From positions 643,677 to 654,977 of the forward strand of contig NW_018388003.1 of assembly GCF_001417965.1 (NCBI RefSeq): a DNA stretch of 11,301 nt, given 5' to 3'. The DNA comes from Exaiptasia diaphana (lineage: Eukaryota). The notes below the pieces were generated by a model, which was given only the letters and a program-made list of their open reading frames with translations, was not told where the DNA came from and did no database searches. The translations under genes were made by a program, and so were the position numbers. Of this stretch, positions 1 through 11,301 are shown piece by piece (position 1 is the first letter of the stretch; every line of letters starts with the position of its first letter).

Positions 1-491
1 GTACATCTTTACTTCCAGTTCATCCTTCATTGTTTGTGGAGGTGGTGGGACTGCTTTTTTAAGTTCTTGGATTAAGCTCTCTCGTTCTTGGATTAAGCTC
101 TCTATCTCTCGTTGAGGCATGGCTGAACGTGCACGTCGCTTAGCTCGCAGTGAAGTTATTTCAGGTGGAGGAGGTGGTCCTCCACAAGGGGCAGGAGGTG
201 GAGGAGGTGGTCCCCCAAAAGGGGCAGGAGGTGGAAGGGGTGGTCCTTTGCTAGGAGGTGGAGGAGGTGGCCTTGCCCCAGTGGCAGAAAGTGGAGGAGA
301 TGGCCCTGCACCAGTGGCAGGAGGTGGAGGAGGTGGACCTCTCCTAGGGGCAGGAGTTGGGAGGCGTGGTCCTCTCCTAGGGGCAGGAGTTGGGGGGCGT
401 GGTCCTCTACTAGGAGGTGGCCCTGCCCCAGGAGCAGGAGGTGGAGGAGGGGGCGGTGGTAGGACCGCATTTACAGCAAATTTTTCATCTT
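1..491 (-). CDS. Poly-proline exon that continues beyond the window start: DEKFAVNAVLPPPPPPPPAPGAGPPPSRGPRPPTPAPRRGPRLPTPAPRRGPPPPPPATGAG...GGPPPPPPAPCGGPPPPPEITSLRAKRRARSAMPQREIESLIQERESLIQELKKAVPPPPQTMKDELEVKMY.
   Basis: I checked the frame codon by codon: it is a 163-codon open minus-strand frame. The acceptor is atctcttgcag| at 493-492, and the exon starts with 2 nt completing a codon, which is compatible with the FG exon ending in +1. The plus-strand Gly-rich ORF 119..523 is its antisense. Confidence 0.65.
170..470 (-). repeat. Imperfect tandem repeats of about 40-45 bp that encode the reiterated GPPPPPPAP(C/F)GG and APRRGPR(P/L)PTP poly-proline units.
   Basis: Recurring plus-strand ggtggaggaggtggtcc(t/c)cc...gggcaggagg blocks. 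The units are APRRGPR(P/L)PTP twice and GGPPPPPPAP twice, and the coding frame is verified. Confidence 0.8.
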
Positions 492-1193
492 CTGCAAGAG
501 ATCGCGATAAGATAAATCAATGAAAATAAATATGTATATAAATGACAGACATAAAATATTGAAATTAGGTGTAATATGATGGTCCTGGTGTGAGACGTCT
601 TGAGAACGACTGTTATAGTTTTACATGAGGTTTCGACATCCTGTGTGGATATTTACATATTTAATACCGACTTTGTCTGTTCGTCTTCTCACTCTGAATA
701 TAACTTCCACACAGGACGTCGAAATGTCAGGTGGTAACTACCGGACGATCACACCTACATCGCTTACACCTGGTTCAGACATAACATATTCACAATTAAA
801 CTATTAATTAGCAAATATAATTCATATTAATTCAGAAACAGACACTATATTTACATTGACCAACTTCAGAACACTAACGAAAAAACTCTCAAACAACCCT
901 CAGACACAGGAATTAGATGTCATTTTTGTGTAGGTGCGTAGGCTTGATAATCAAAAATAAAACGGTTTCTACTACGACTTAAGCACTAGTGATAGCCTAT
1001 GTCGTACTCTGAACCAGCACCAGACCCCTTGCATGTGACGTCAAAGCAGCTCCAGGAGGACAAAACACAAGATTATTTCCCTCTTGGGAACTAGAATCCA
1101 TTGTTTTGTCCTTCAGGTGCAGCTGCATTCCCATGTCTACAGATAATTGAAATAACAATCAAAAGTCATTAAGAAAGATGTGTTTTGACCTAC

Positions 1194-2159
1194 CCATGAG
1201 TAAAGGTTGTGAGCGATCGACGCCTGGCGAGGTTGGACTGTACTGAGGAGAAGGTGGACTAGGTGAGATACTTTCTTCTGTTCCCTTCACAAAACCTAGC
1301 AAATTTCCACCTGAACTACCTTGCTGCCCAAAAAGACTGGTATTTCCCATTAGGTTAAATGTTTTTGGTGGTACTCCAAACGCCAAGCCACCCGATTGAT
1401 TGACGGCACCACGGGATGGTGCTCCAAAAAGAGTAGTACCTTCCATTTGCTCAACTGGTTTTGTTGATCCTCCAAATGCAAAGCCACCCAATTCAATGCC
1501 CGCACCACTGGGTGGTGCTCCAAAACCAGATGGTATTCCATCAGCCCTTCCATCCATTGATTTTGTTTTAGGCATAGAGCGATACAATCCAAACATTCCC
1601 ATGCCGGTTTGCTCTGCACTAAATGCTGGACCAGAAGACGAAGCAAAACCAAAACTACTTGATGAACTTCTTGGTGCAGCACTACCAAACACTGGCTGGG
1701 ATAGTTTTTCTGGCTGTTGTTGCTGCACCGAGTCAAATAATCCGCCGCTCACTTTGGAAGCAGAAGATGAACCAAAAATAAATAACGAACTCGGTGCAGA
1801 CCCAAAAATACCTGTTGAACTATTTGCATCAGCAGTACCAAACAGTGGAGGTGCTACTTCTTGTTGCTGTTGTTGCTGCTGCTGTTGTTGTTGTACAGAG
1901 CCAAATAAGCCAAATCCAACAGCTGGTGCTGTTGTTGACTGTTGCTCTTTTGGCACTTCACTCGCTAAGAATGCACGACGTTGGGGTTTCATTTTCAAGT
2001 AATATTCTTTTTGCGGCTCAATTGGGATTGAAAATGATTCACTTTTAACATCCGCCTTACCAAGCATTAGTGAAGCCTTGTACGGTTTGAGATCCGCTGA
2101 AGCTTTATAGCATGTGACAGTCGGCTCAGCTTCAGATTTTTCGGGAACATAACCATAAA
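1194..2159 (-). CDS. 966-nt low-complexity exon with FG-type repeats (FGLFG, LFGTA, IFGSA, FIFGSS, VFGSA, FGFASS, GFAFGGS, LFGAPS, AFGVPP, LFGQQ), an 11-residue poly-Gln run and an S/P-rich end. It resembles an FG-nucleoporin repeat region.
   Basis: This is the listed ORF 1159..2067, and it is also open upstream as far as the acceptor ttttataatacag| at 2161-2160. The donor ATGG|gtaggt at 1193 keeps phase with the next exon. If that donor is not used a stop follows at 1159. Confidence 0.7.
1861..1894 (-). repeat. Coding (CAG/CAA)n tract encoding Q11 inside the FG-repeat exon.
   Basis: The plus strand reads ttgttgctgttgttgctgctgctgttgttgttg, which on the minus strand is CAA/CAG codons giving QQQQQQQQQQQ. 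Confidence 0.9.
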
Positions 2160-2245
2160 CTGTATTATAAAATATATATATATCGCTTTAAAATCTTCCA
2201 ATATATAACACCAAGCAATGGTTATCTGAGTTGCACTCATCTTAC

Positions 2246-2326
2246 CTTTAGATCGCTTTTCCTCTGATCTATTTCTGTGGACTGCAGATTCCATATCAGT
2301 ATATACTTCTTCATCATCTTTATCAT
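2246..2326 (-). CDS. Acidic micro-exon: DDKDDEEVYTDMESAVHRNRSEEKRSKG. It is copy 2 of the tandem exon duplication.
   Basis: The acceptor ttcctttttgtactttag| is nearly identical to that of copy 1. The donor is TAAAG|gtaaga. The exon is 81 nt with symmetric phase 1-1. Confidence 0.55.
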
Positions 2327-2432
2327 CTAAAGTACAAAAAGGAAAATTGTTATATGATAAACAAGCACCAAGTAAGCAATTAGTCATAGTTAATACACAA
2401 ACACCGTGCTACAAATTGTACAATCATCTTAC

Positions 2433-2531
2433 ATCCTGCGGATAGCATTTCCATGAGAAGTTCTGATCTATGTCGGGGACCTTTAAGTTCAATTAAATCA
2501 TCATAATCATCGTCTCCATCATCGTCATCAT
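2433..2531 (-). CDS. Acidic micro-exon: DDDDDGDDDYDDLIELKGPRHRSELLMEMLSAG. It is copy 1 of a tandem exon duplication.
   Basis: The acceptor is ttccttattgtactttag| and the donor is AGGAT|gtaaga. The exon is 99 nt with symmetric phase 1-1. Confidence 0.55.
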
Positions 2532-2817
2532 CTAAAGTACAATAAGGAAAATTGATCTATGATAAATTTAAGCAAACAAATAACGCTTCGTTCTTTCCCT
2601 TTCCCTCGATGCGTCTACAATTATTTCTACAAAATTAGATTTCAGTGGTTTTCAATAAGCCGTGAAATACATTTTAATTATTTAATACACTTTTCTTATT
2701 CTTTATTGTTCACCTTTTTTTGTCTTTTGGTTCATCAAACTTTAATGCGTCTTATCTATTACACATTATTTCAAGGGTTACTGAAAACCACTCTACTATT
2801 AAAGTTGTTATTGTTAC

Positions 2818-3360
2818 CAATGGAGCAGAAGTATGAAATGTTCTCATCAATGTCCACCTCAGTATCTCTACTGTTATCACGATCGGCATCTTCAAGCTCA
2901 ACCGGACTGTCAACGTCGCTATCAGAGTATCTGTGGAATCGCTCGAATCTGCGTGCACCTGCTCTTCTTCTTGTTCCAAAGAGCTGGTCTTCGGACTCAG
3001 TCATCTTAGTTCTTGCCTGAACCTCAGTTTCATCTTCTACACCACAACAAGTAATAGAACTCGAACTTGTGCTGTACTTTTCCCTTTCTTTCACTCCCTC
3101 TTCTTCCCATTCATCTTCCGAATCAGTCGAAACGGAGTCTGAATTGGAACTTGAACCATCAGAAGTTTCTGTTTCTGATAAATAATCTTTGATGATATCC
3201 TTTATATTCTCTGAAGGAAACATTGATTGACCAACTCTTAATATACGTCGAATTTCTTCATTGTCATCAATATCAGTGACATTTTCTAAGGTCTCTAAGC
3301 AGTCAATGAGATCACCAAATTTGGTCCGATCCAGCACGTCTATGTCAACATTTCCTCTCT
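2818..3360 (-). CDS. Long acidic/Ser-rich exon: (E)RGNVDIDVLDRTKFGDLIDCLETLENVTDIDDNEEIRRILRVGQSMFPSENIKDIIKDYLSETETSDGSSSNSDSVSTDSEDEWEEEGVKEREKY...DTEVDIDENISYFCSI(G).
   Basis: The exon is 543 nt with 181 open codons. The acceptor is tttcttatgtttag| and the donor is ATTG|gtaaca. It starts in phase 1, which matches the +1 end of exon 3794..4031, so it is probably a continuation of the PARP4-like ORF. Confidence 0.65.
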
Positions 3361-3793
3361 CTAAACATAAGAAATATAAAGATGAGAAAATTAAACAAGA
3401 CCATTGAAACATACTTATGAGGAGTCGGATAGGGTTAGGGTAAGGGGGCGGGGGAAGTAAAAACGTTTGAAGCAGCAGAAATGAAAGATATGAAGAATAA
3501 CATTAATACTAAAGACTTTTGTAGCAGCCCTAAGTAGATATTTTCTGAAATAATATCAAGCATGGCATTATCGTTTGTTTATGCTGCCAAATATAGTGCA
3601 ACTAGACCACAATGCAACATGGTTTTTGTAAAGATCTGTGACAGTGGTGCAATATCGCACCCAGAGCCCGCACGTTTGTCATAGAGTGGAAGACCACTGA
3701 CAAAGACTCTGTGCTCGAGATTCACAGCCATGAAAGACAGTAAAACATCATTATAAATAACTCGACCCAATGCAATTTTTACATGTTATTTAC

Positions 3794-4031
3794 CTAGAAT
3801 GCACACTAAAACAACAAGAATCACAAGTTTCTTGTCATCGTCCCCTAACACTTTGGCGTAAAAGTGGGCTAAATCTTTAAATGCCTGCCAACTTGTTTCC
3901 AAATTCAGCTCCTCAAAGTTGTCAAATACAATGGTACAAGCGTCTTTATAAAGATCTTCTGACTGAAGAAGTGAAACTCCTTCTAGTGACTTTGCTTCTA
4001 CAAGCAATCGATGGACATTGTCTTCTGGAGT
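3794..4031 (-). CDS. PARP4: Exon: TPEDNVHRLLVEAKSLEGVSLLQSEDLYKDACTIVFDNFEELNLETSWQAFKDLAHFYAKVLGDDDKKLVILVVLVCIL(G).
   Basis: The acceptor is ttggttttcag| and the donor is CTAG|gtaaat. The exon is 238 nt. If the intron were retained a TAA follows after 2 codons, giving ...ILGK*. Confidence 0.7.
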
Positions 4032-4123
4032 CTGAAAACCAATCATCATTATCATTATCATCATCATCATTTTCTTAATCAAATCACCCATCATTATCGT
4101 TATCACAAGCGTGTCATCATTAC

Positions 4124-4354
4124 CGGTTTGGTTTTCTCTGTAATCTGTGTTTGATTTGTTTCCTCCCATCCAACATATGGTATAATATCAACGTTTTCAC
4201 CAGCCACTAGTTCTAGTATACTAGGACCATTGTCAGCATCGAATTTTTCATCTTTTTCTCTAGTTTCAATGGCCACAAAACTGGTAAACTGGGACACGAT
4301 GGAGAACTCCTTGCTGAGCATTATGATACAATCTTTTTTGTCATGTTTGGCAAC
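4124..4354 (-). CDS. PARP4: Exon: VAKHDKKDCIIMLSKEFSIVSQFTSFVAIETREKDEKFDADNGPSILELVAGENVDIIPYVGWEETNQTQITEKTKP.
   Basis: The acceptor is ccattttag| and the donor is AAACCG|gtaatg. The exon is 231 nt. It contains TQFTSFVAVE, a segment conserved in PARP4 as I recall it. Confidence 0.85.
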
Positions 4355-4434
4355 CTAAAATGGTAAAAAAGAGTTTTAACCCCAGGGGGGAATAGATATA
4401 ACAATAACGACTTGGCTGATCCTCACTGACTTAC

Positions 4435-4596
4435 CTCATGTAATGTGTTATCAGCGTCTAAGTTTCCTTCTTCCCAGTCACGAATCATCGCCCTGGCAAC
4501 AAGCTGGTGTAAAATCTTGCCTCTGGTGATACTGAGATCAGATGTGGAGACCACTGTGGAAACTTCCCTGCTGTTCACTTCAGCTGACAGACTGGC
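4435..4596 (-). CDS. PARP4: Exon: ASLSAEVNSREVSTVVSTSDLSITRGKILHQLVARAMIRDWEEGNLDADNTLHE.
   Basis: The acceptor is acatttcag| and the donor is CATGAG|gtaagt. The exon is 162 nt. It carries the motif HQLAARALIRD that I recall in the conserved post-VWA region of PARP4. Confidence 0.8.
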
Positions 4597-4623
4597 CTGA
4601 AATGTAATTGGTAGATCGTTAAG

Positions 4624-4659
4624 AGCAGGAGCAGTAGCAGGAGCAGGAGCAGGAGCAGT
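4624..4659. repeat. (GCAGGA)n hexanucleotide repeat. It lies inside the 70-nt intron between the exons 4665..4739 and 4435..4596.
   Basis: Direct reading of agcaggagcagtagcaggagcaggagcaggagcag. Confidence 0.85.
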
Positions 4660-4664
4660 CTTAC

Positions 4665-4739
4665 CTGTGTACAATTAGATATCAGGCCATATACCACAAG
4701 TCTTGATCCATTGAACAAAGAAACAATCTCATGTGGAGC
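4665..4739 (-). CDS. PARP4: Exon: APHEIVSLFNGSRLVVYGLISNCTQ.
   Basis: The acceptor is cttcattttag| and the donor is ACACAG|gtaaga. The exon is 75 nt. Confidence 0.75.
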
Positions 4740-4805
4740 CTAAAATGAAGCATATCTATCGTTGCTTTTTTCTGAATATAATGGACAAACTGCTGCATAT
4801 CAAAC

Positions 4806-4901
4806 CTGCTCAGGGGGCGTGGCACAGCTGTCGTGCTGTTGCCAAGTAACTGATACTGACGTCAATCCAGGCTGTCCACACTTGGAAATTTGCTCTTTAA
4901 C
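4806..4901 (-). CDS. PARP4: Exon: VKEQISKCGQPGLTSVSVTWQQHDSCATPPEQ.
   Basis: The acceptor is ccgcttgaaaag|, which is weak, so the 5' boundary is tentative. The donor is GAGCAG|gtttga. I recall a similar SVSVKWQQ segment after the VWA domain in human PARP4. Confidence 0.65.
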
Positions 4902-4981
4902 CTTTTCAAGCGGAAAAACATTGCTTATTAGATTTAGTACTGTCAGAAATGAAAGAAAGAAATCGAAAAAATGAAAGAAAC

Positions 4982-5081
4982 CTTTCTTTCCCATTTTGAC
5001 TTTATCTTGGAATCAAAAAATTCACAGTCACCAGCACCAATACGTGCAAGAGAACGGAGAAAGTGGCGATTACTTGATGCA
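4982..5081 (-). CDS. PARP4: Exon at the end of the VWA domain: (G)ASSNRHFLRSLARIGAGDCEFFDSKIKSKWERK.
   Basis: The acceptor is ttttattgcag| and the donor is GAAAG|gtttct. The exon is 100 nt. Confidence 0.8.
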
Positions 5082-5152
5082 CTGCAATAAAACATACATC
5101 AAGACGTTGTGCTATGTCTTACAAGAAGTAATCAATCAATCAAATCACTCAC

Positions 5153-5349
5153 CCAACACCCATTGTAAACACTCTCGTCTTTAGTCGATGTTTTCTAACC
5201 AGCTTCATGGTTGTGGCTTCCTCTGTCACGTGACCATCGGAGATGATGATGACGTTTCTGGGATGATCTGCGGCTGACATGGATTGGATCAAACTCAATG
5301 ACTCCAAAACTCTCCATAAATCAGTACCTCCTTTGCGAGAAGTTGCAGA
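5153..5349 (-). CDS. PARP4: VWA exon: SATSRKGGTDLWRVLESLSLIQSMSAADHPRNVIIISDGHVTEEATTMKLVRKHRLKTRVFTMGVG.
   Basis: The acceptor is tttttgatag|, preceded by an in-frame stop. The donor is GTTGG|gtgagt. It contains GGT (the MIDAS Thr) and the VIIISDG motif. Confidence 0.9.
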
Positions 5350-5441
5350 CTATCAAAAATATTTGATATCATCAAAACAATGTCCTATAAACCTGTTTGA
5401 AGATCAAGTATGTGGCCATCACTATAGCCAATATATATTAC

Positions 5442-5515
5442 CATTATGAAATCAGTAGCTTGTGTGACTGTGAAGTTGTCTTTTGGTCGACTAGTTGGAA
5501 AGACCTCACTATGCG
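5442..5515 (-). CDS. PARP4: VWA exon: (S)HSEVFPTSRPKDNFTVTQATDFIM.
   Basis: The acceptor is tttacttcattag| and the donor is ATAATG|gtaata. The exon is 74 nt. Confidence 0.8.
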
Positions 5516-5724
5516 CTAATGAAGTAAAGAAAATACAAACAAATACTTGGAGAAAGAAATTAAAAACAGAAAATTGATAGTCAAAAAGGCAACTAAGACA
5601 ACCAATGGAATTGCAATCATAGGTACCAAAGTAACCATCTCCGTTCATTGCAAAGGTACATTTGTCCTTCAAGGTGGTGAGGGAATTTGGAAAGGCGACT
5701 ATATTGTTCTTTAATCATACTTAC

Positions 5725-5833
5725 AGCTCCCGAACACAGCAATGTTAAAAAGCCAGTTGTCAGGCAAGATTGTCAAACACATTAAAAGTATCTTCTTTGC
5801 TTGTTCAAATGGACTATCAACTTGACATGAACC
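5725..5833 (-). CDS. PARP4: VWA exon: GSCQVDSPFEQAKKILLMCLTILPDNWLFNIAVFGS.
   Basis: The acceptor is tatttttcag| and the donor is GGAGCT|gtaagt. The exon is 109 nt. Confidence 0.85.
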
Positions 5834-5982
5834 CTGAAAAATAAGTCTCAATTTGACAAAGAAACTGTTGATTTTTGCTGTTAGACTACTACAAGACTTT
5901 ATGTGAACAAAGAAATTAATGACATGATAGATTCAGTTAGTAATGCGTAGTTGATATTTGAAGCATATATCATGAATAATAC

Positions 5983-6075
5983 CTGCATAGAATTTGATGC
6001 ATCCAAGAAAAACAAGACTTCCGCTTGTGTACATGTTTCTGATTCAAACTCTGGATAAAAAACCAGCATACCAGC
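5983..6075 (-). CDS. PARP4: Exon at the start of the VWA domain: AGMLVFYPEFESETCTQAEVLFFLDASNSMQ. It contains the MIDAS DxSxS motif.
   Basis: The acceptor is tccctatag| and the donor is ATGCAG|gtatta. The exon is 93 nt. Confidence 0.9.
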
Positions 6076-6155
6076 CTATAGGGACACAACATAAAGAAGT
6101 ATAATGGTTGTGTTTGATTGGTATCAGATAGGACTAAAGAGATTTTAAAACATAC

Positions 6156-6293
6156 TTCACTATCATGTCTTGTATCATGGCTCTCGACCCACATTCTGGG
6201 AACATGAATCTCAGCCAATTGGATGACAAGCTGAAACCCATCACCTATCACATGACCTGACGCCATCTCTACCACAGCTTTAGTTGCAGTACG
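6156..6293 (-). CDS. PARP4: Exon: RTATKAVVEMASGHVIGDGFQLVIQLAEIHVPRMWVESHDTRHDSE.
   Basis: The acceptor is attatcag| and the donor is AGTGAA|gtatgt. The exon is 138 nt. The listed ORF 5970..6275 is this same region read one frame off and running through the intron. Confidence 0.75.
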
Positions 6294-6363
6294 CTGATAA
6301 TTAATAAGATTAAGATACAGTTAAGGAGTATTTTTGACTAAAACATCAGTTGCTTTCTTTTAC

Positions 6364-6445
6364 CTTGATTAAGATAGGATGGGTTGGTGATCTGATAGAC
6401 TTGATATCAAAAGGCATTTCTACAGCAACTTGAATGGTTGTATTT
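6364..6445 (-). CDS. PARP4: Exon: NTTIQVAVEMPFDIKSIRSPTHPILIK.
   Basis: The acceptor is tgttatttag| and the donor is ATCAAG|gtaaaa. The exon is 82 nt. Confidence 0.75.
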
Positions 6446-6480
6446 CTAAATAACAAAAAGACAATTCACAGGAAAGTTAG

Positions 6481-6590
6481 CGAGTGAATGAGTGAGTGAG
6501 TGATAGATTAGCTCCTTTCAAATGCAATCTCTGAGTCAAAAATGACAATTAAATAAAAAACAAAAAACAAACAAAAAAAAAAAAAAAAAG
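6481..6590. repeat. Intronic (GAGT)n microsatellite at 6481-6504 plus an A-rich, poly(A)-like tract at 6551-6589.
   Basis: Direct reading of cgagtgaatgagtgagtgagtgat and aaaaaacaaaaaacaaacaaaaaaaaaaaaaaaaaag. The A tract is the poly-pyrimidine side of the minus-strand intron. Confidence 0.9.
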
Positions 6591-6623
6591 CAGTGAGATG
6601 TGGAAAGAATGTTTTATTGTTAC

Positions 6624-6658
6624 CTCTCTTGCTCAACCTTGACAGTGTCAACATCACT
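6624..6658 (-). CDS. PARP4: 35-nt micro-exon: SDVDTVKVEQE(R).
   Basis: The acceptor is taatttgcag| and the donor is AGAGAG|gtaaca. It restores the phase between its neighbours. Confidence 0.75.
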
Positions 6659-6746
6659 CTGCAAATTATACAAAAAATACCATTTAATTGTGATTTCCTC
6701 ATTATAACATAATATAATAAATGATATATCACTGTTTATGGTTAAC

Positions 6747-6911
6747 CTGTATTTCATAATCAAGAGCTTGACTTTGTTTCCATGGTGCTACAGACCCAGG
6801 TAACTTGAAGCAAATGCTCTCTCCCTCAACATTAAGTTCTGCTACATATGTGATCTTGATCAAGACACTTGCATTCGGAGGAAGGTTGCCGACACTCACG
6901 GTAAACACATC
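6747..6911 (-). CDS. PARP4: VIT exon: DVFTVSVGNLPPNASVLIKITYVAELNVEGESICFKLPGSVAPWKQSQALDYEIQ.
   Basis: The acceptor is tttatttag| and the donor is ATACAG|gttaac (a weak donor). The exon is 165 nt. Confidence 0.9.
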
Positions 6912-6987
6912 CTAAATAAAACAAGAAATTAAGGATTAAATGCAGCAATACTACAGTTTTAGCAGACACATGGTGTGTGTGGCTTAC

Positions 6988-7121
6988 TGGCGTTTCTTCA
7001 TCCATTAAGTAGGCTCCATGGCCTTTGCTGATGGCTTCACGATACTCCTTGTGAGCTTGCTCTTTCTCTTTTACTTCACCAATGACATGTTTTCCATTTA
7101 TGAAAGCCTCAAAACCACAAA
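6988..7121 (-). CDS. PARP4: VIT exon: (V)CGFEAFINGKHVIGEVKEKEQAHKEYREAISKGHGAYLMDEETP.
   Basis: The acceptor is attttttcag| and the donor is ACGCCA|gtaagc. The exon is 134 nt. Confidence 0.9.
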
Positions 7122-7167
7122 CTGAAAAAATAGCAAATTTTTCAATTAATGAATCTATAACTCACTC

Positions 7168-7190
7168 AATTAATCAATCAATCATGTCAC
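7168..7190. repeat. Intronic (ATCA)n microsatellite. A second (CAAT)n block lies at 7376-7407.
   Basis: Direct reading of taatcaatcaatcatg and acaatcaatcaatctgtcagtcaatcaatcagg. Confidence 0.85.
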
Positions 7191-7275
7191 TCTGTTGTTT
7201 CCAATATCCAATTAATGGCCTTATCCCAGGTTGATTAATGAAATAATGTAATAATGATACATAAGAAACACATAC

Positions 7276-7360
7276 CAGCAGCCATGTCGTCCAGTGGAAA
7301 GACATACTTTGCCTCTATAGGTACAGAGCTGTTATTCTTGTAAGATTGTAAAACTACAAC
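7276..7360 (-). CDS. PARP4: VIT exon: VVVLQSYKNNSSVPIEAKYVFPLDDMAA.
   Basis: The acceptor is ttgttctgtag| and the donor is GCTGCTG|gtatgt. The sequence is nearly identical to what I recall of the human PARP4/VWA5A VIT core. Confidence 0.9.
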
Positions 7361-7430
7361 CTACAGAACAAAGATACAATCAATCAATCTGTCAGTCAAT
7401 CAATCAGGACATTATATCTAATCAAGCATC

Positions 7431-7511
7431 TATTATTATTATTATTTCTTCATTCACTCATCCTTTTATTCATTTTACCATGTATTCATTCATTCATTCA
7501 TTCATTCATTT
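7431..7511. repeat. Intronic microsatellites: (ATT)n at 7431-7446 and (CATT/TCAT)n at about 7448-7511.
   Basis: Direct reading of tattattattattatt and cattcattcattcattcattcatt in the intron between the exons 7533..7675 and 7276..7360. Confidence 0.9.
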
Positions 7512-7532
7512 AATTTAATTATCTATCTGTAC

Positions 7533-7675
7533 CTGACCAACAAGGTCCATTAGTTTTGCTCGAATATGTACAGCTTGAAGTGGGACGGGTACATCACCAC
7601 TGCCTTTAAGACCTGCTTTGACCTTAGACAATGGATCAGCCACAGACATAACATCTGATACATCAATTTGCCGAG
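7533..7675 (-). CDS. PARP4: Exon at the start of the VIT domain: (A)RQIDVSDVMSVADPLSKVKAGLKGSGDVPVPLQAVHIRAKLMDLVGQ.
   Basis: The acceptor is tccctgcag| and the donor is GGTCAG|gtacag. It carries the VPL....V...I....A V motif that opens VIT domains. Confidence 0.85.
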
Positions 7676-7747
7676 CTGCAGGGATGTAATTATAGTTTTC
7701 AATACAAAAGTAGCAGTATTAACTATCCAAATATTGCATTGATTTAC

Positions 7748-7866
7748 CATAAAAATCTTGGTTCTCTGATTCTTCATCCTCTTCAATATTTAGTTCTTGC
7801 AATAAAGTAACATCAACTTGACGTTTTCTTGTGTGCTCTCCATTCAAACTAAACTCAACAAGATAT
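7748..7866 (-). CDS. PARP4: Exon at the end of the catalytic domain: YLVEFSLNGEHTRKRQVDVTLLQELNIEEDEESENQDFY.
   Basis: The acceptor is ttttgtag| and the donor is TTTATG|gtaaat. It follows the RYL..F motif that ends the PARP fold. Confidence 0.8.
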
Positions 7867-7981
7867 CTACAAAAGAAGATTTTAGCAGGTTTAACTTCAA
7901 GCATCAAAATTAAAAGATGAGCAAGCAGGATACAAACCAAATATATCTTATCCAGGTTGACACATAACTGTGTTATCATAC

Positions 7982-8124
7982 CTCATTTGTTGCTGGTTTG
8001 TATTATAAATCACAAATTCATTGTTTTTAAAGTCTGATGGTTCTTGATTTGTCTCAGCAACACCACAAACACTATCAAAGCCAGCAGGAGGCGATGTCAA
8101 CTCTTTGTTAAAATGTCTGTAACG
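7982..8124 (-). CDS. PARP4: Exon of the catalytic domain: RYRHFNKELTSPPAGFDSVCGVAETNQEPSDFKNNEFVIYNTNQQQM(R). It contains the catalytic Glu (the YNEY-like NNEFVIY).
   Basis: The acceptor is tccttacag| and the donor is AATGAG|gtatga. The exon is 143 nt. Confidence 0.85.
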
Positions 8125-8264
8125 CTGTAAGGATTTATTAGTAGCTTGTTTTAGTAATTCATTTAGTTCATTAAGTATAAACTCAGTAAAAGTTTAATGA
8201 AGAGCTTTGCAAGATTTATTACAAATCAAATAACAAAAAAATATTTTGAATATGGGAACCTTAC

Positions 8265-8346
8265 CTTAATTTTACCTAATGCCACCTCACTAATCAGCAT
8301 AAACCGGGAACCATTGCCCCCACAGGTTGAGTATTTAGCACTAGTA
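8265..8346 (-). CDS. PARP4: Exon of the catalytic domain: TSAKYSTCGGNGSRFMLISEVALGKIK.
   Basis: The acceptor is tgattatag| and the donor is ATTAAG|gtaagg. It carries the SKSA.Y....LLL.EVALG motif. Confidence 0.85.
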
Positions 8347-8442
8347 CTATAATCATGAATGATAACAGCTCAATGATATATTATTGAGTTTAATTATTGA
8401 ATAATATAATAAATGATACAATAAATTTTAACTTCTGAATAC

Positions 8443-8541
8443 CTTATAGAATCACCAAAATAGATTCCCCCTCCAAGCATGCCAGCATCAGATCTCACGC
8501 CACCAAAGTCATCTACAATGATCTTAGGAAGCAGTAACCCT
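8443..8541 (-). CDS. PARP4: Exon of the catalytic domain: GLLLPKIIVDDFGGVRSDAGMLGGGIYFGDSI(S).
   Basis: The acceptor is caattttag| and the donor is TATAAG|gtattc. It contains the GIYF(A/G)D NAD-binding motif. Confidence 0.85.
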
Positions 8542-8623
8542 CTAAAATTGGACAACAACAGATAGTTTGATTGGTGAGAATTACATCTAGTGATAGAAAT
8601 TGCAATTAACTAGATAAAATTAC

Positions 8624-8652
8624 CTTGAAAGGATTCCAACAAAGTTGTTTGC
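8624..8652 (-). CDS. PARP4: 29-nt micro-exon of the catalytic domain: ANNFVGILS(R).
   Basis: The acceptor is cttcgcag| and the donor is TTTCAAG|gtaatt. The segment aligns to PARP1 TTNFAGILSQG. Confidence 0.8.
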
Positions 8653-8733
8653 CTGCGAAGACGAAATTATTAATGATATATTCAATAAACAAATGCAATT
8701 GAATCATAATATCTTTTTCTCGTCATAACATAC

Positions 8734-8842
8734 TCTCGATGCATGGAAGAGAAGTCTTTTGTCATCAATGTTGTGTGCGAAATTGCTTTCCTCTACTGGA
8801 CGGTGAAGGGAGAAGATATTGATGATTTCTACTTCTGAAGAA
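8734..8842 (-). CDS. PARP4: Exon of the PARP catalytic domain: (C)SSEVEIINIFSLHRPVEESNFAHNIDDKRLLFHASR. It contains the catalytic His motif (HGS in PARP1, HAS here).
   Basis: The acceptor is ttctttcag| and the donor is TCGAGA|gtatgt. The segment aligns to PARP1 LEVIDIFKIEREGE...NRRLLWHGSR. Confidence 0.85.
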
Positions 8843-8973
8843 CTGAAAGAATAATTTGTTGACAAACTCATTACATCACACAAAATAACTTAATTGAGTT
8901 TTAGCTCAATAATACATAATTAATTAATATTGAAATTTGATTAAAGAGTTATCAAATTGTTTCATTTACGTAC

Positions 8974-9134
8974 CATGTCTGGCTTGACAAAATATAAGCT
9001 TTGATTCTTTTAAACTCTTCATTGTCATGTTCCATGTAATCAATGTGGCATTTTAGAGCTCTATAAAGAGTTAAGTCTGACTTTCCTGATGACATGTTAT
9101 AGCATTCACCAACTGTGATGATGTCCCTTATGAT
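8974..9134 (-). CDS. PARP4: Exon encoding the end of the regulatory domain and the start of the catalytic domain: IIRDIITVGECYNMSSGKSDLTLYRALKCHIDYMEHDNEEFKRIKAYILSSQT.
   Basis: The acceptor is tttttaatag| and the donor is ACATG|gtacgt. The exon is 161 nt. It carries the pattern LKC.I..L....EF..I..Y that is typical just upstream of the PARP catalytic core. Confidence 0.8.
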
Positions 9135-9348
9135 CTATTAAAAACAAAGAAATCAAGAAAAACCATTATGAATAGGTTAACTAATAATTGTGTTAGTTTT
9201 TCCCAGTGCTCTGGTCATTGACAGTGACATGTTGAGACTTTGAAAGTTGCCTATGACTATAAAAATGATGACAAAAATGATATTATGAACAATATGATGA
9301 TCACATCATTTTTATAGCAAATGTTGTACTAAATGTCACTTAACCCAC

Positions 9349-9690
9349 CTGACACAAATTCTGTTTCTCTGCAATGAGGCTTTTGCTAAACTTTGAGACA
9401 GCGTCTAAACCATTAGCCTGAGGTATACATTGACAGAAATCTCCCCAGAGCTTCTGCATCTTGTCCTGGCTACCACTATCATCCAGACATCCCTTCATTA
9501 ACGTCAAAATAGCTTCAGCTTCCTGTAGTTTTTGAAGTTTTATGTTTTCAACAGTCCCTTTGATAACATCACCCACAAGCTTATCAGCCTCATCCCACAG
9601 ACACTTCACAAGACTTGTTACTTCTAATAGACCTGATGATTTTAGTAGAGGTTGAGCTCCATCACCACTTGACTGCATGTCAAGATATTG
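9349..9690 (-). CDS. PARP4: Exon encoding the PARP regulatory (alpha-helical) domain: QYLDMQSSGDGAQPLLKSSGLLEVTSLVKCLWDEADKLVGDVIKGTVENIKLQKLQEAEAILTLMKGC...LIAEKQNLCQ.
   Basis: An in-frame stop lies directly upstream of the acceptor gtttttag|. The donor is TGTCAG|gtgggt. The exon is 342 nt. Its helical, amphipathic character is similar to the PARP1 regulatory domain. Confidence 0.8.
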
Positions 9691-9809
9691 CTAAAAACAT
9701 TAAACAACATGTGATGTTAGTATTAATCAAAGTTTGCAATGAGTAAAGCCATTTGTTGCTGCAAGCACATGACATCTTGCTTCATGTCATGTCATGTATT
9801 CATACAAAC

Positions 9810-10109
9810 CTCTTTCATTTTATCAGATCCAATCTTGGATGACAAAAGTGATGAAGCCCTCATATAACCATTACTTATTGCAGCTCTGTCATGTAATGCA
9901 ACATAGATACCCATTGCTTCTTCTGCCGTGTACACATAACAACACTCCTTAAACCCCTGACCATGCCCTTCATTATGGTGCTTTAATAGTTCTAAATTGC
10001 CGTGGTGAGTAAAGATACGGTATCGCTGAGATTCACATGGGATAGGTTGAGGTATAACATGCAGCTCAATTTCAAGAAACTTGCTTGTCTTTCCATCATC
10101 ATCATTTTG
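9810..10109 (-). CDS. PARP4: Exon encoding the region between the BRCT and PARP regulatory domains: QNDDDGKTSKFLEIELHVIPQPIPCESQRYRIFTHHGNLELL...GIYVALHDRAAISNGYMRASSLLSSKIGSDKMKE.
   Basis: A 300-nt open frame matches the listed ORF 9792..10115. The acceptor is gatttgcag| and the donor is AAAGAG|gtttgt. Phase is 0 at both ends. Confidence 0.7.
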
Positions 10110-10371
10110 CTGCAAATCATAAGCAAAACATTTAACATCTTACACGACTTTGATCACAAAAGAAATCTTCACTGATAACTATCGTTGAGTATTTTAATTG
10201 ATTAGTACATCATTTATTGAGAAGCATTCTCTTGGTGAGCACATATTTCAATCACTAGGAATCAGCTACACGATTCATCTGCATAAATATTGCTTCACAT
10301 TATTCTTTACACGATCCCCTCTAGGGAATTCAATTGGCATAATGTTTGGTCTTCTATTGCTTTAGTCATAC

Positions 10372-10453
10372 CTTGAATAACACATTTTTGGCTATCTTGT
10401 AGTCTTTCTCAGAATAGGGTGGTGAACTTCTAGCATCTTTATAAGGCCAAACA
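10372..10453 (-). CDS. PARP4: Exon: (S)VWPYKDARSSPPYSEKDYKIAKNVLFK.
   Basis: The acceptor is attttaaag| and the donor is TTCAAG|gtatga. The exon is 82 nt and its phases are compatible with both neighbours. Confidence 0.55.
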
Positions 10454-10535
10454 CTTTAAAATAAAATATTTTATATACATAAGAGGAGAATGGTGGATTA
10501 ATTTATAGAATTATATTTTATATTGTTCAAATTAC

Positions 10536-10626
10536 CTTAAATTTGCTAATTTTGAATCGTCAAATTTGATCAAATTAGTTTCTTTTTTATTTTTATTGGA
10601 AGATAAATCTTTTGGTTTTGAGTATG
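10536..10626 (-). CDS. PARP4: Short Lys-rich linker exon: (T)YSKPKDLSSNKNKKETNLIKFDDSKLANL.
   Basis: The acceptor is ttatctccacag| and the donor is TTTAAG|gtaatt. The 91-nt length is exactly what is needed to bridge the phases of the flanking exons. The sequence is low complexity, so this call rests mainly on splice signals and phase. Confidence 0.45.
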
Positions 10627-10751
10627 CTGTGGAGATAAGAATATCACAGAGTCATTACAAAAAATAGTAGAGGCGCTTCAAATTAATCATCACCATCATC
10701 GTCATCATCATCATTATTATAAGGAAGTAGTAGTAATCTATGCCATCTTAC

Positions 10752-10965
10752 TGTTAATTTTGCCCGTCTTCAGCTGGTTATTTTCAAGTTGATATTCAGA
10801 GTCACAGAATGGATAAGTATAAAGTGGAAGATCTATGAACTCTTTCTTTTTGATGCAGTTTTCAATAAACTCCATTTTAACAATCTCGGTGCCATATTTT
10901 AATGCTGTAGCTCCTTTGTAAGATGAATACGTCTTTTTTGGATCAGCTGTCAGCAGAACGTGTGA
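10752..10965 (-). CDS. PARP4: Exon encoding the C-terminal half of the BRCT domain: SHVLLTADPKKTYSSYKGATALKYGTEIVKMEFIENCIKKKEFIDLPLY...KTGKIN.
   Basis: The acceptor is ttctttttag| and the donor is ACA|gtaaga. The exon is 214 nt, starts in phase 0 and ends with 1 extra nt. It has the BRCT consensus features (THV..., W/F-I..C). Confidence 0.75.
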
Positions 10966-11199
10966 CTAAAAAGAATATTTTTTAAAACATTGTAGATATA
11001 CGTATGCATAATTTTACCCCCTCCCCCCTAAACCAGAGTTGTTGATCATCAAAGAAACTTCCTGTAGACGAAGGAAGGTTTCTGCATCGCAAACCAACTC
11101 AAAAATACCACAAAATTCACAAATTTTGCAAAAATCATTGTTAAGTTCAAAACTCTTCCTATCTAAGTCAGTCAAGCAGCAATCATTGACAATTCATAC

Positions 11200-11301
11200 C
11201 TTTCTTGTCAAAATATACGAGACGATTCCTCCATTGGAAGTGATGTCTTCACGGAGTTTTTGCTTCTTTTTGAACGGCACATAGGTAAAACTTGAGGAAT
11301 C
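11200..11301 (-). CDS. PARP4: Exon (5' end lies beyond the window) encoding the N-terminal half of the BRCT domain: DSSSFTYVPFKKKQKLREDITSNGGIVSYILTRK.
   Basis: The frame is open from the window edge. The donor is AAG|gtatga at 11199-11198. The BRCT-like motif NGG.V...THV continues into the next exon. Confidence 0.7.

Follow-up and report, generated by a model that had tools for sequence, protein, structure and literature searches.

A probable FG- and proline-rich linker in the vault PARP gene of the cnidarian Exaiptasia diaphana

The window analyzed here is an 11,301-nucleotide stretch of Exaiptasia diaphana DNA (contig NW_018388003.1, positions 643,677 to 654,977). It is AT-rich eukaryotic genomic DNA that carries almost the entire gene for PARP4, the vault PARP, on its minus strand. 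We find it likely that a long low-complexity tail downstream of the conserved exons belongs to this cnidarian PARP4 gene, as the counterpart of the human linker between the ITIH-like (VIT-vWA) region and the MVP-interacting domain (MVP-ID). The tail comprises a ~140-residue helical module, split by the intron between 3794 and 3360, followed by more than 660 disordered residues. These run in the order Ser/acidic, a cluster of phenylalanine-glycine (FG) dipeptides with a run of 11 glutamines (Q11), YSPTSP, poly-Pro, and basic/charged. The original prediction had left two options, a module on a vault PARP and a separate gene. Alignment to Nematostella, phase-1 introns, and an open reading frame (ORF) in a coral-like transcript favor the former and disfavor the latter.

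The gene upstream of the tail

The gene upstream of the tail is assigned to PARP4 because window positions 11301..4160 are collinear with residues 13-1240 of Nematostella vectensis PARP4 isoform X1, each exon being 35-80% identical, and because of Pfam domain hints. These hints, from single-exon translations, are to BRCT_2, PARP_reg, PARP, VIT, and VWA_3, with every score below cut-off because the exon pieces are short. The motifs LLFHASR, GIYFGDS, and NEFVIYN were read in the exon translations, and their Nematostella counterparts are LLFHASR, GIYFADR, and DEFVVYD. We take these to be the positions of the H-Y-E triad. The nearest named relatives of the window protein are all cnidarian (Desmophyllum, 66%; Acropora, 51%; and Nematostella); a protein of E. 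diaphana itself did not turn up. The domain order is that which defines PARP4/vPARP (PARP clade 5A): BRCT, the PARP regulatory and catalytic regions mid-protein, then VIT and vWA (PMC2964712).

Exon 4354..4124 is 75% identical to residues 1176-1240 of Nematostella PARP4 X1 and 60% identical to a Lingula PARP4-like fragment. It ends in phase 0, which fixes the frame of exon 4031..3794. The intron between these two exons (4032-4123) is mostly an ATG/ATA trinucleotide microsatellite. This microsatellite forms an open Met/Ile-rich frame and enlarges the mechanical ORF 3786..4169.

The features of the tail and of the exon before it, all on the minus strand, are as follows.

4124..4354, minus: last clearly conserved ITIH-like/post-vWA PARP4 exon (…FSIVSQFTSFVAIETREKDEKF…IPYVGWEE…TKP), donor CCG/GTAATG
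3794..4031, minus: helices 1-4 of the helical-repeat module (TPEDNVHRLL…KKLVILVVLVCIL), phase 1 at donor TAG/GTAAAT
3361..3793, minus: phase-1 intron of 433 nt, with an in-frame TAA at 3786 if retained and an in-frame ATG at 3412 within the polypyrimidine tract
3173..3360, minus: helices 5-7 of the helical module (ERGNVDIDVLDRTKFGDLIDCL…IIKDYLSE), first part of exon 3360..2818
2818..3172, minus: Ser-rich/acidic disordered segment, rest of exon 3360..2818
2433..2531, minus: acidic mini-exon 1 (DDDDGDDDYDDLIELKGPRHRSELLMEMLSAG), tandem duplicate of mini-exon 2
2246..2326, minus: acidic mini-exon 2 (DKDDEEVYTDMESAVHRNRSEEKRSK), tandem duplicate of mini-exon 1
1194..2159, minus: large FG exon of 322 aa, with FG core 1920..1282, Q11 1893..1861, a 96-nt internal repeat 1328..1525, and YSPTSPG 1242..1222
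492..1193, minus: phase-1 intron, holding a 27-nt inverted repeat (623-649 / 706-732)
1..491, minus: Pro/charged exon open at the window edge, with poly-Pro 462..160, LRAKRRAR 150..127, and a duplicated ESLIQE heptad 102..64

The exons of the tail

Six minus-strand exons (4031..3794, 3360..2818, 2531..2433, 2326..2246, 2159..1194, and 491..1) join into a coding sequence of 2418 nt, that is, 806 codons with zero stops. The GT-AG signals reported for them were reproduced. Each acceptor is an AG behind a polypyrimidine tract, and the donors read GTAAAT, GTAACA, GTAAGA, GTAAGA, and GTAGGT. The phases are also as had been claimed: exon 4031..3794 has 238 nt with 1 nt left over, and the next exons consist of 2 nt, whole codons, and 1 nt. 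The four exons that follow 4031..3794 have lengths that are multiples of 3 and are in phase 1 at both ends.

At local composition, the chance of a stop-free frame is 1.5e-6 for exon 3360..2818 and 7.9e-9 for exon 2159..1194. For mini-exons 2531..2433 and 2326..2246, taken singly, the open frame is not significant against local composition. Frame 2 alone is open along the whole of exon 491..1, and it is still open at the window edge. A plus-strand poly-Gly ORF (119..523) was rejected as coding; it mirrors the Pro-rich frame and is without independent support.

Intron 1193..492 contains an inverted repeat with arms that are 85% complementary and 56 nt apart. It resembles a small foldback or an insertion of the miniature inverted-repeat transposable element type.

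A predicted helical module across the 3794-3360 intron

Homology to Nematostella PARP4 continues across the junction of exons 4031..3794 and 3360..2818. A single BLASTP alignment (36% identity, E 2.8e-13) relates the Nematostella PARP4 tail to window tail residues 4-109; it crosses the junction at residue 79/80 and continues for 30 residues more. The product of exon 3360 alone gave no significant BLASTP alignment with the Nematostella tail. We also ran phmmer exhaustively over 1.8 billion representative proteins with a query of 148 residues spanning the junction. Only two matches were returned: an exon of a close relative (P0002, E 7.5e-13) and Nematostella PARP4 (E 2e-4, query residues 4-103).

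The intron itself is conserved in phase. The homologous Nematostella intron is also in phase 1 (…HGALG/G/IEHD) and is spliced across in all five RefSeq isoforms, and in the genomic contig of the closer relative (L003) the same exon ends at a phase-1 GT donor. P0002 counts toward this conserved donor but not toward the join, because L003 is genomic and the last six residues of P0002 are intron read-through. Within a PARP4 intron on L003 (~400-470), the exon for GKxLHQLxARAMIRDxEEG occurs a second time in degenerate form, which we interpret as an exon-duplication remnant.

AlphaFold2 predicts seven helices for the module (pTM 0.67), with pLDDT of 84-91 before the junction and ~70 after it; helix 84-100 runs across the junction. 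These results change two points of the original prediction. Exon 3794..4031 had been taken as the last conserved exon, but conservation with Nematostella runs ~30 residues further, into exon 3360. Likewise, exon 3360..2818 is not acidic from its start, as its first ~62 residues are the second half of the helical module begun in exon 4031..3794.

No close match to the module was found in the PDB or Pfam. Searching PDB sequences with the junction-spanning module returned chance matches alone, and Pfam gave zero matches to TPR profiles. Foldseek searches of the PDB returned generic TPR, 14-3-3, and designed-repeat matches (best E 0.03, TM score 0.3-0.45). Although SLLQSEDLY in exon 4031 resembles SLQTEDGFW of the human MVP-binding domain, we do not take the two as counterparts, because Nematostella carries this module plus a separate, genuine MVP-ID.

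Tails of orthologous proteins

Orthologues from cnidarians and a brachiopod carry tails of similar layout. Nematostella PARP4 X1 (XP_048577466.1, 2354 aa) resembles the window in its domain order through the helical module and in the placement of the phase-1 intron. After the module, both have a Ser/acidic segment, acidic Y-x-D-M motifs, Pro-rich repeats, and a charged segment. The acidic, Pro-rich, and charged segments of X1 sit between the helical module and a C-terminal domain that matches human PARP4 residues 1564-1704 (PDB 9bw6/9bw7/11jf, E 9.5e-13). Unlike the window, X1 has an embedded actin fragment, ~400 aa of another Pro-rich repeat, and only 3 FG.

The coral-like sequence P0036, from a Logan contig of 3144 nt, is a single ORF of 884 aa without interruption. 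This one ORF contains VWA_3, an acidic/Ser stretch, YRPTSPG, seven FG, PLPPPPAPP, and PARP4_MVP-ID. Because the orthologous genes are intron-rich, the contig must be a spliced transcript. At the Lingula anatina locus LFEI02001411.1, the PARP4 vWA exons are followed immediately, on their own strand, by a set of acidic exons, one large exon bearing 12 FG, Pro runs of up to 9, and a Ser-rich end.

The segment order acidic, FG, Pro is common to the window, Lingula, and the coral transcript. In shuffle tests, FG was enriched over composition in the same three linkers (p<5e-5 for the window, p<5e-5 for Lingula, and p = 1e-4 for the coral transcript); enrichment was not significant in the Nematostella (0.06) or human (0.29) linkers. 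P0036 and Lingula differ from the window in having fewer FG (7 and 12, respectively) and a reduced or absent helical module. Furthermore, Pro runs in P0036 are shorter than those of the window, and YSPTSP precedes the FG cluster in Lingula whereas it follows the cluster in the window. Two fish PARP4 models (P0030 and P0033) were left out as vertebrate linker references because they are too fragmentary.

The motif Y[S/R]PTSP(G) occurs in the window (1242-1222), in Lingula (locus L001, ~14880-14900), and in the P0036 linker. We roughly estimate a ~7% chance of a coincidental shared 6-mer between two such linkers. Y[S/R]PTSP is identical to the heptad core of the RNA polymerase II C-terminal domain.

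An N-terminal fragment of actin (Pfam Actin, E 7.5e-12 and 3.5e-12) lies inside the PARP4 linkers of Nematostella and the sponge Dysidea avara. Its sites are 33452-34532 of Nematostella OW051998.1 (L002), residues 1490-1555 of P0005, and residues 561-628 of P0040. The fragment is present in all five Nematostella RefSeq isoforms, and in Dysidea avara it is preceded by a ubiquitin domain. A piece of actin is thus kept inside the vault PARP of two phyla; none was found in the window.

Weighing the alternatives

Several points weigh against the assignment of the whole tail to PARP4. Past tail residue ~109 there is no significant alignment to any orthologue; homology of the FG and Pro exons therefore rests on composition, order, and synteny. 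A word-indexed homology search with the whole 806-aa tail gave zero matches, probably because low-complexity words filled the candidate list. Phase agreement by itself is weak evidence for the exon joins, since phase-compatible exon boundaries were picked in the original prediction, and we infer splicing in E. diaphana from comparison with other species. PARP4_MVP-ID, present in Nematostella X1 and P0036, would here lie outside the window, past position 1. In Nematostella, isoforms X2-X5 end upstream of the Pro-rich and MVP-ID parts, which means that inclusion of the tail may not be constitutive. The original prediction had also pointed to the TAA at 3786, and this stop is real (GGT AAA TAA, just past the 3794 donor). 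Together with the in-frame ATG at 3412, it leaves room for a truncated PARP4 isoform or for a product with a start of its own.

Could the tail be a separate FG/Pro-rich gene, with PARP4 ending at …VCILGK and the TAA at 3786 and the next gene starting at or near ATG 3412? The stop two codons past the donor would suit such a gene, as would the in-frame ATG, which gives MFQWSCLIFSSLYFLCL-ERGN…, and NCBI annotates the Lingula equivalent as a gene of its own, of 751 aa. We consider this most improbable, however, as the Nematostella PARP4 alignment and a predicted helix both span the junction, and the phase-1 donor is kept in three species. The minus strand of intron 3793..3361 has no canonical poly(A) signal (zero AATAAA/ATTAAA, and a single CATAAA at 3583). 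The 17 hydrophobic codons after ATG 3412 are a translated polypyrimidine tract, an artefact of the kind also found where the 751-aa Lingula model starts (MIYVVLFFFSK). Because that model starts within a polypyrimidine tract, joins the PARP4 exon in frame through its first exon (phase 2 to phase 2), and ends by read-through of a strong phase-1 donor, it looks like an internal PARP4 fragment truncated at both ends. Finally, the coral transcript links vWA to FG, Pro, and MVP-ID.

It is less improbable, though still unlikely, that the tail is in PARP4 but limited to certain isoforms. Intron retention at 3793 or read-through at 1193 (…PLLMGRSKHIFLNDF-stop) would shorten the linker and drop the vault anchor, and such short isoforms may end at 3786 or 1159. 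In-frame stops do follow soon after donors 3794 and 1194, and four of the five Nematostella RefSeq isoforms end early, as described above. Against this, an AT-rich intron is likely to have a stop close behind its donor by chance, no poly(A) signal is present past 3786, and the window itself shows no alternative use. A third alternative accepts the PARP4 assignment and treats the linker as an entropic spacer of which only the length matters, its FG and Pro segments being without specific function and its composition drifting by replication slippage. This has an appreciable chance of being correct, although we lean against it. Recent tandem repeats make up much of the Pro segment and part of the FG segment, the sequence cannot be aligned with orthologues, the Nematostella and human linkers are without significant FG enrichment, and the human linker is reported to be fast-evolving (PMC10450202). 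Nevertheless, the window, the coral transcript, and the brachiopod Lingula all show FG enrichment over composition, the acidic-FG-Pro order, and Y[S/R]PTSP.

The disordered segments

The composition given in the original prediction was recovered in full from the translation: an acidic stretch, more than 10 FG with Q11, poly-Pro, and a charged end. The Ser/acidic stretch is 180 aa long with 31% D+E. In Nematostella, too, this module is followed by a comparable run; in the coral transcript and Tegillarca, such runs come after the vWA region. The two mini-exons are a tandem duplication (window 2215-2600, 79% identical) that extends over the GTAAGATGA donor and ~40 nt of the intron upstream. Acidic tyrosine motifs lie at window 2312-2292 and 2511-2488. 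The window has EEVYTDM, with DLYVDM and DMYVDM in the Nematostella linker; DxYDD[LI]xE is present in both mini-exon 1 and the Nematostella X1 linker. These acidic Tyr motifs match the Y-x-x-M of phosphotyrosine SH2 ligands, which may be a coincidence.

The large exon of 322 aa has 13 FG dipeptides, where 20,000 shuffles gave a mean of 2.8 and a maximum of 9. Its FG core holds 13 FG in 213-219 aa (~17 residues per FG), of which 9.6% are charged and 66% are S/T/G/A/Q/N/P.

The poly-Pro segment (102 aa, 53% Pro) has runs of 8, 6, 6, 6, and 5. It is encoded by ~8 copies of a 33-nt repeat (462..160) and contains two RPPTPAPR-type PxxPxR sites and one PPLP. The last 53 residues after the Pro tract are basic/charged, with a 7-aa duplication (21-nt repeat, 2 copies). 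LRAKRRAR within them is more simply read as a basic cluster resembling a nuclear localization signal (NLS). A WH2-like reading of …LIQELKKAV… is without Pfam support and was rejected. The tail as a whole appears to have been enlarged by local tandem duplication, through exon duplication and the 96-nt, 33-nt (~8), and 21-nt (2) repeats.

Possible function and significance

We infer all functional roles of the FG and Pro segments. If the tail is a PARP4 linker, then by analogy with human PARP4 an MVP-binding domain (Pfam PF26156) encoded past position 1 would tether the protein to the inside of the vault wall, and the linker would let the BRCT-PARP-ITIH-like half move within the vault lumen. Through weak, multivalent hydrophobic contacts, the low-charge FG cluster would interact with itself, with other PARP4 copies, or with cargo, and profilin-, SH3-, or WW-type docking sites would lie along the stiff poly-Pro tract.

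A bolder scenario, which we regard as a long shot, is that the FG cluster is an ancestral, selected feature of PARP4. It would predate the cnidarian-bilaterian split, would have degraded in vertebrates and Nematostella, and would act like a cohesive nucleoporin FG domain. Several vault-tethered copies would then build up an FG-type phase, which would hold nuclear transport receptors or cargo in place or let vaults engage nuclear pores, while poly-Pro and the actin fragment of Nematostella and the sponge would tie the tether to actin-binding machinery. An association of vaults with nuclear pores has long been reported and is unexplained. If true, the ancestral FG scenario would provide a molecular handle on it.

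Much of what is described here is ordinary. PARP4 was already known from non-vertebrate animals (PMC2964712), and the long Nematostella linker is already modelled in RefSeq. Our literature search found no paper describing the FG or poly-Pro content of PARP4 linkers; the conserved FG-rich layout is thus a modest new observation. A gene-model question is probably settled, in that predictors tend to split PARP4 (as in Lingula) or truncate it at the low-complexity region. Furthermore, the PARP4 linker, usually dismissed from the human protein as a fast-evolving spacer, keeps a layout in distant invertebrates: acidic, FG cluster, and Pro-rich, with the MVP anchor next in those orthologues whose end is visible. 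If this layout is functional, it gives testable ideas on the role of vault PARP inside the vault; if not, it is an ordinary expanded disordered linker.

A comparison of MVP sequences takes PARP4 as vertebrate-only (PMC12280208). Contrary to that view, Nematostella X1 and the coral-like transcript each have a clear MVP-interacting domain of the PARP4 type, so how well the MVP-PARP4 interface is conserved could be reassessed with cnidarians included.

Comparison with known systems

Nucleoporin FG domains offer one point of comparison. The window has dense FG in low-charge S/T/G/A/Q spacers (p<5e-5 against shuffles), and in FG spacing, spacers, and charge it resembles the cohesive low-charge domains of the Nup62/Nup58/Nup98 kind. 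However, the match to Pfam Nucleoporin_FG (PF13634; 24.3 bits, E 5.8e-5) falls below the curated cut-off of 32.2. No domain that binds the nuclear pore complex scaffold was found in the window, and the flanking domains are those of PARP4. A sub-cut-off FG cluster, without a pore anchor and on a PARP, would at most work like a nucleoporin FG domain rather than belong to the family.

The Pro segment resembles formin FH1 and other poly-Pro tracts that bind profilin, SH3, or WW domains, with runs of 5-8 Pro flanked by G/A, PxxPxR, and PPLP. Unlike FH1 tracts, it is a recent 33-nt tandem repeat. FH2, WH2, and EVH1-partner domains had no Pfam match in the 806-aa tail or in the window up to position 1.

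The closest counterpart is human PARP4 itself, where the linker joins the ITIH-like region to the MVP-interacting domain and is long, flexible, and fast-evolving (PMC10450202). It reaches from the wall-anchored C-terminus into the vault lumen (PMC12280208). We verified its sequence residue by residue from the PDB chain. As in the window, the human linker (~1230-1570) follows the motif …FTSFVA[IV]E…[DE]VD.[IL]PY..W and has the same position in the gene. Both linkers are Ser/Pro/Phe-rich and disordered and include a basic, NLS-like cluster. No counterpart of the helical module was detected in the human linker. The claim that the window tail is far more extreme than the human one is borne out: the human linker is ~350 aa long with 2 FG and has neither a Q run nor a run of four or more Pro, against more than 800 aa, 16 FG, and six Pro runs in the window. 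That the tail is unusual holds against human PARP4 but not against invertebrates, since Lingula (12 FG) and the coral (7) have a similar, FG-enriched order. The window tail thus appears to lie at the upper end of the range among invertebrate PARP4 linkers.

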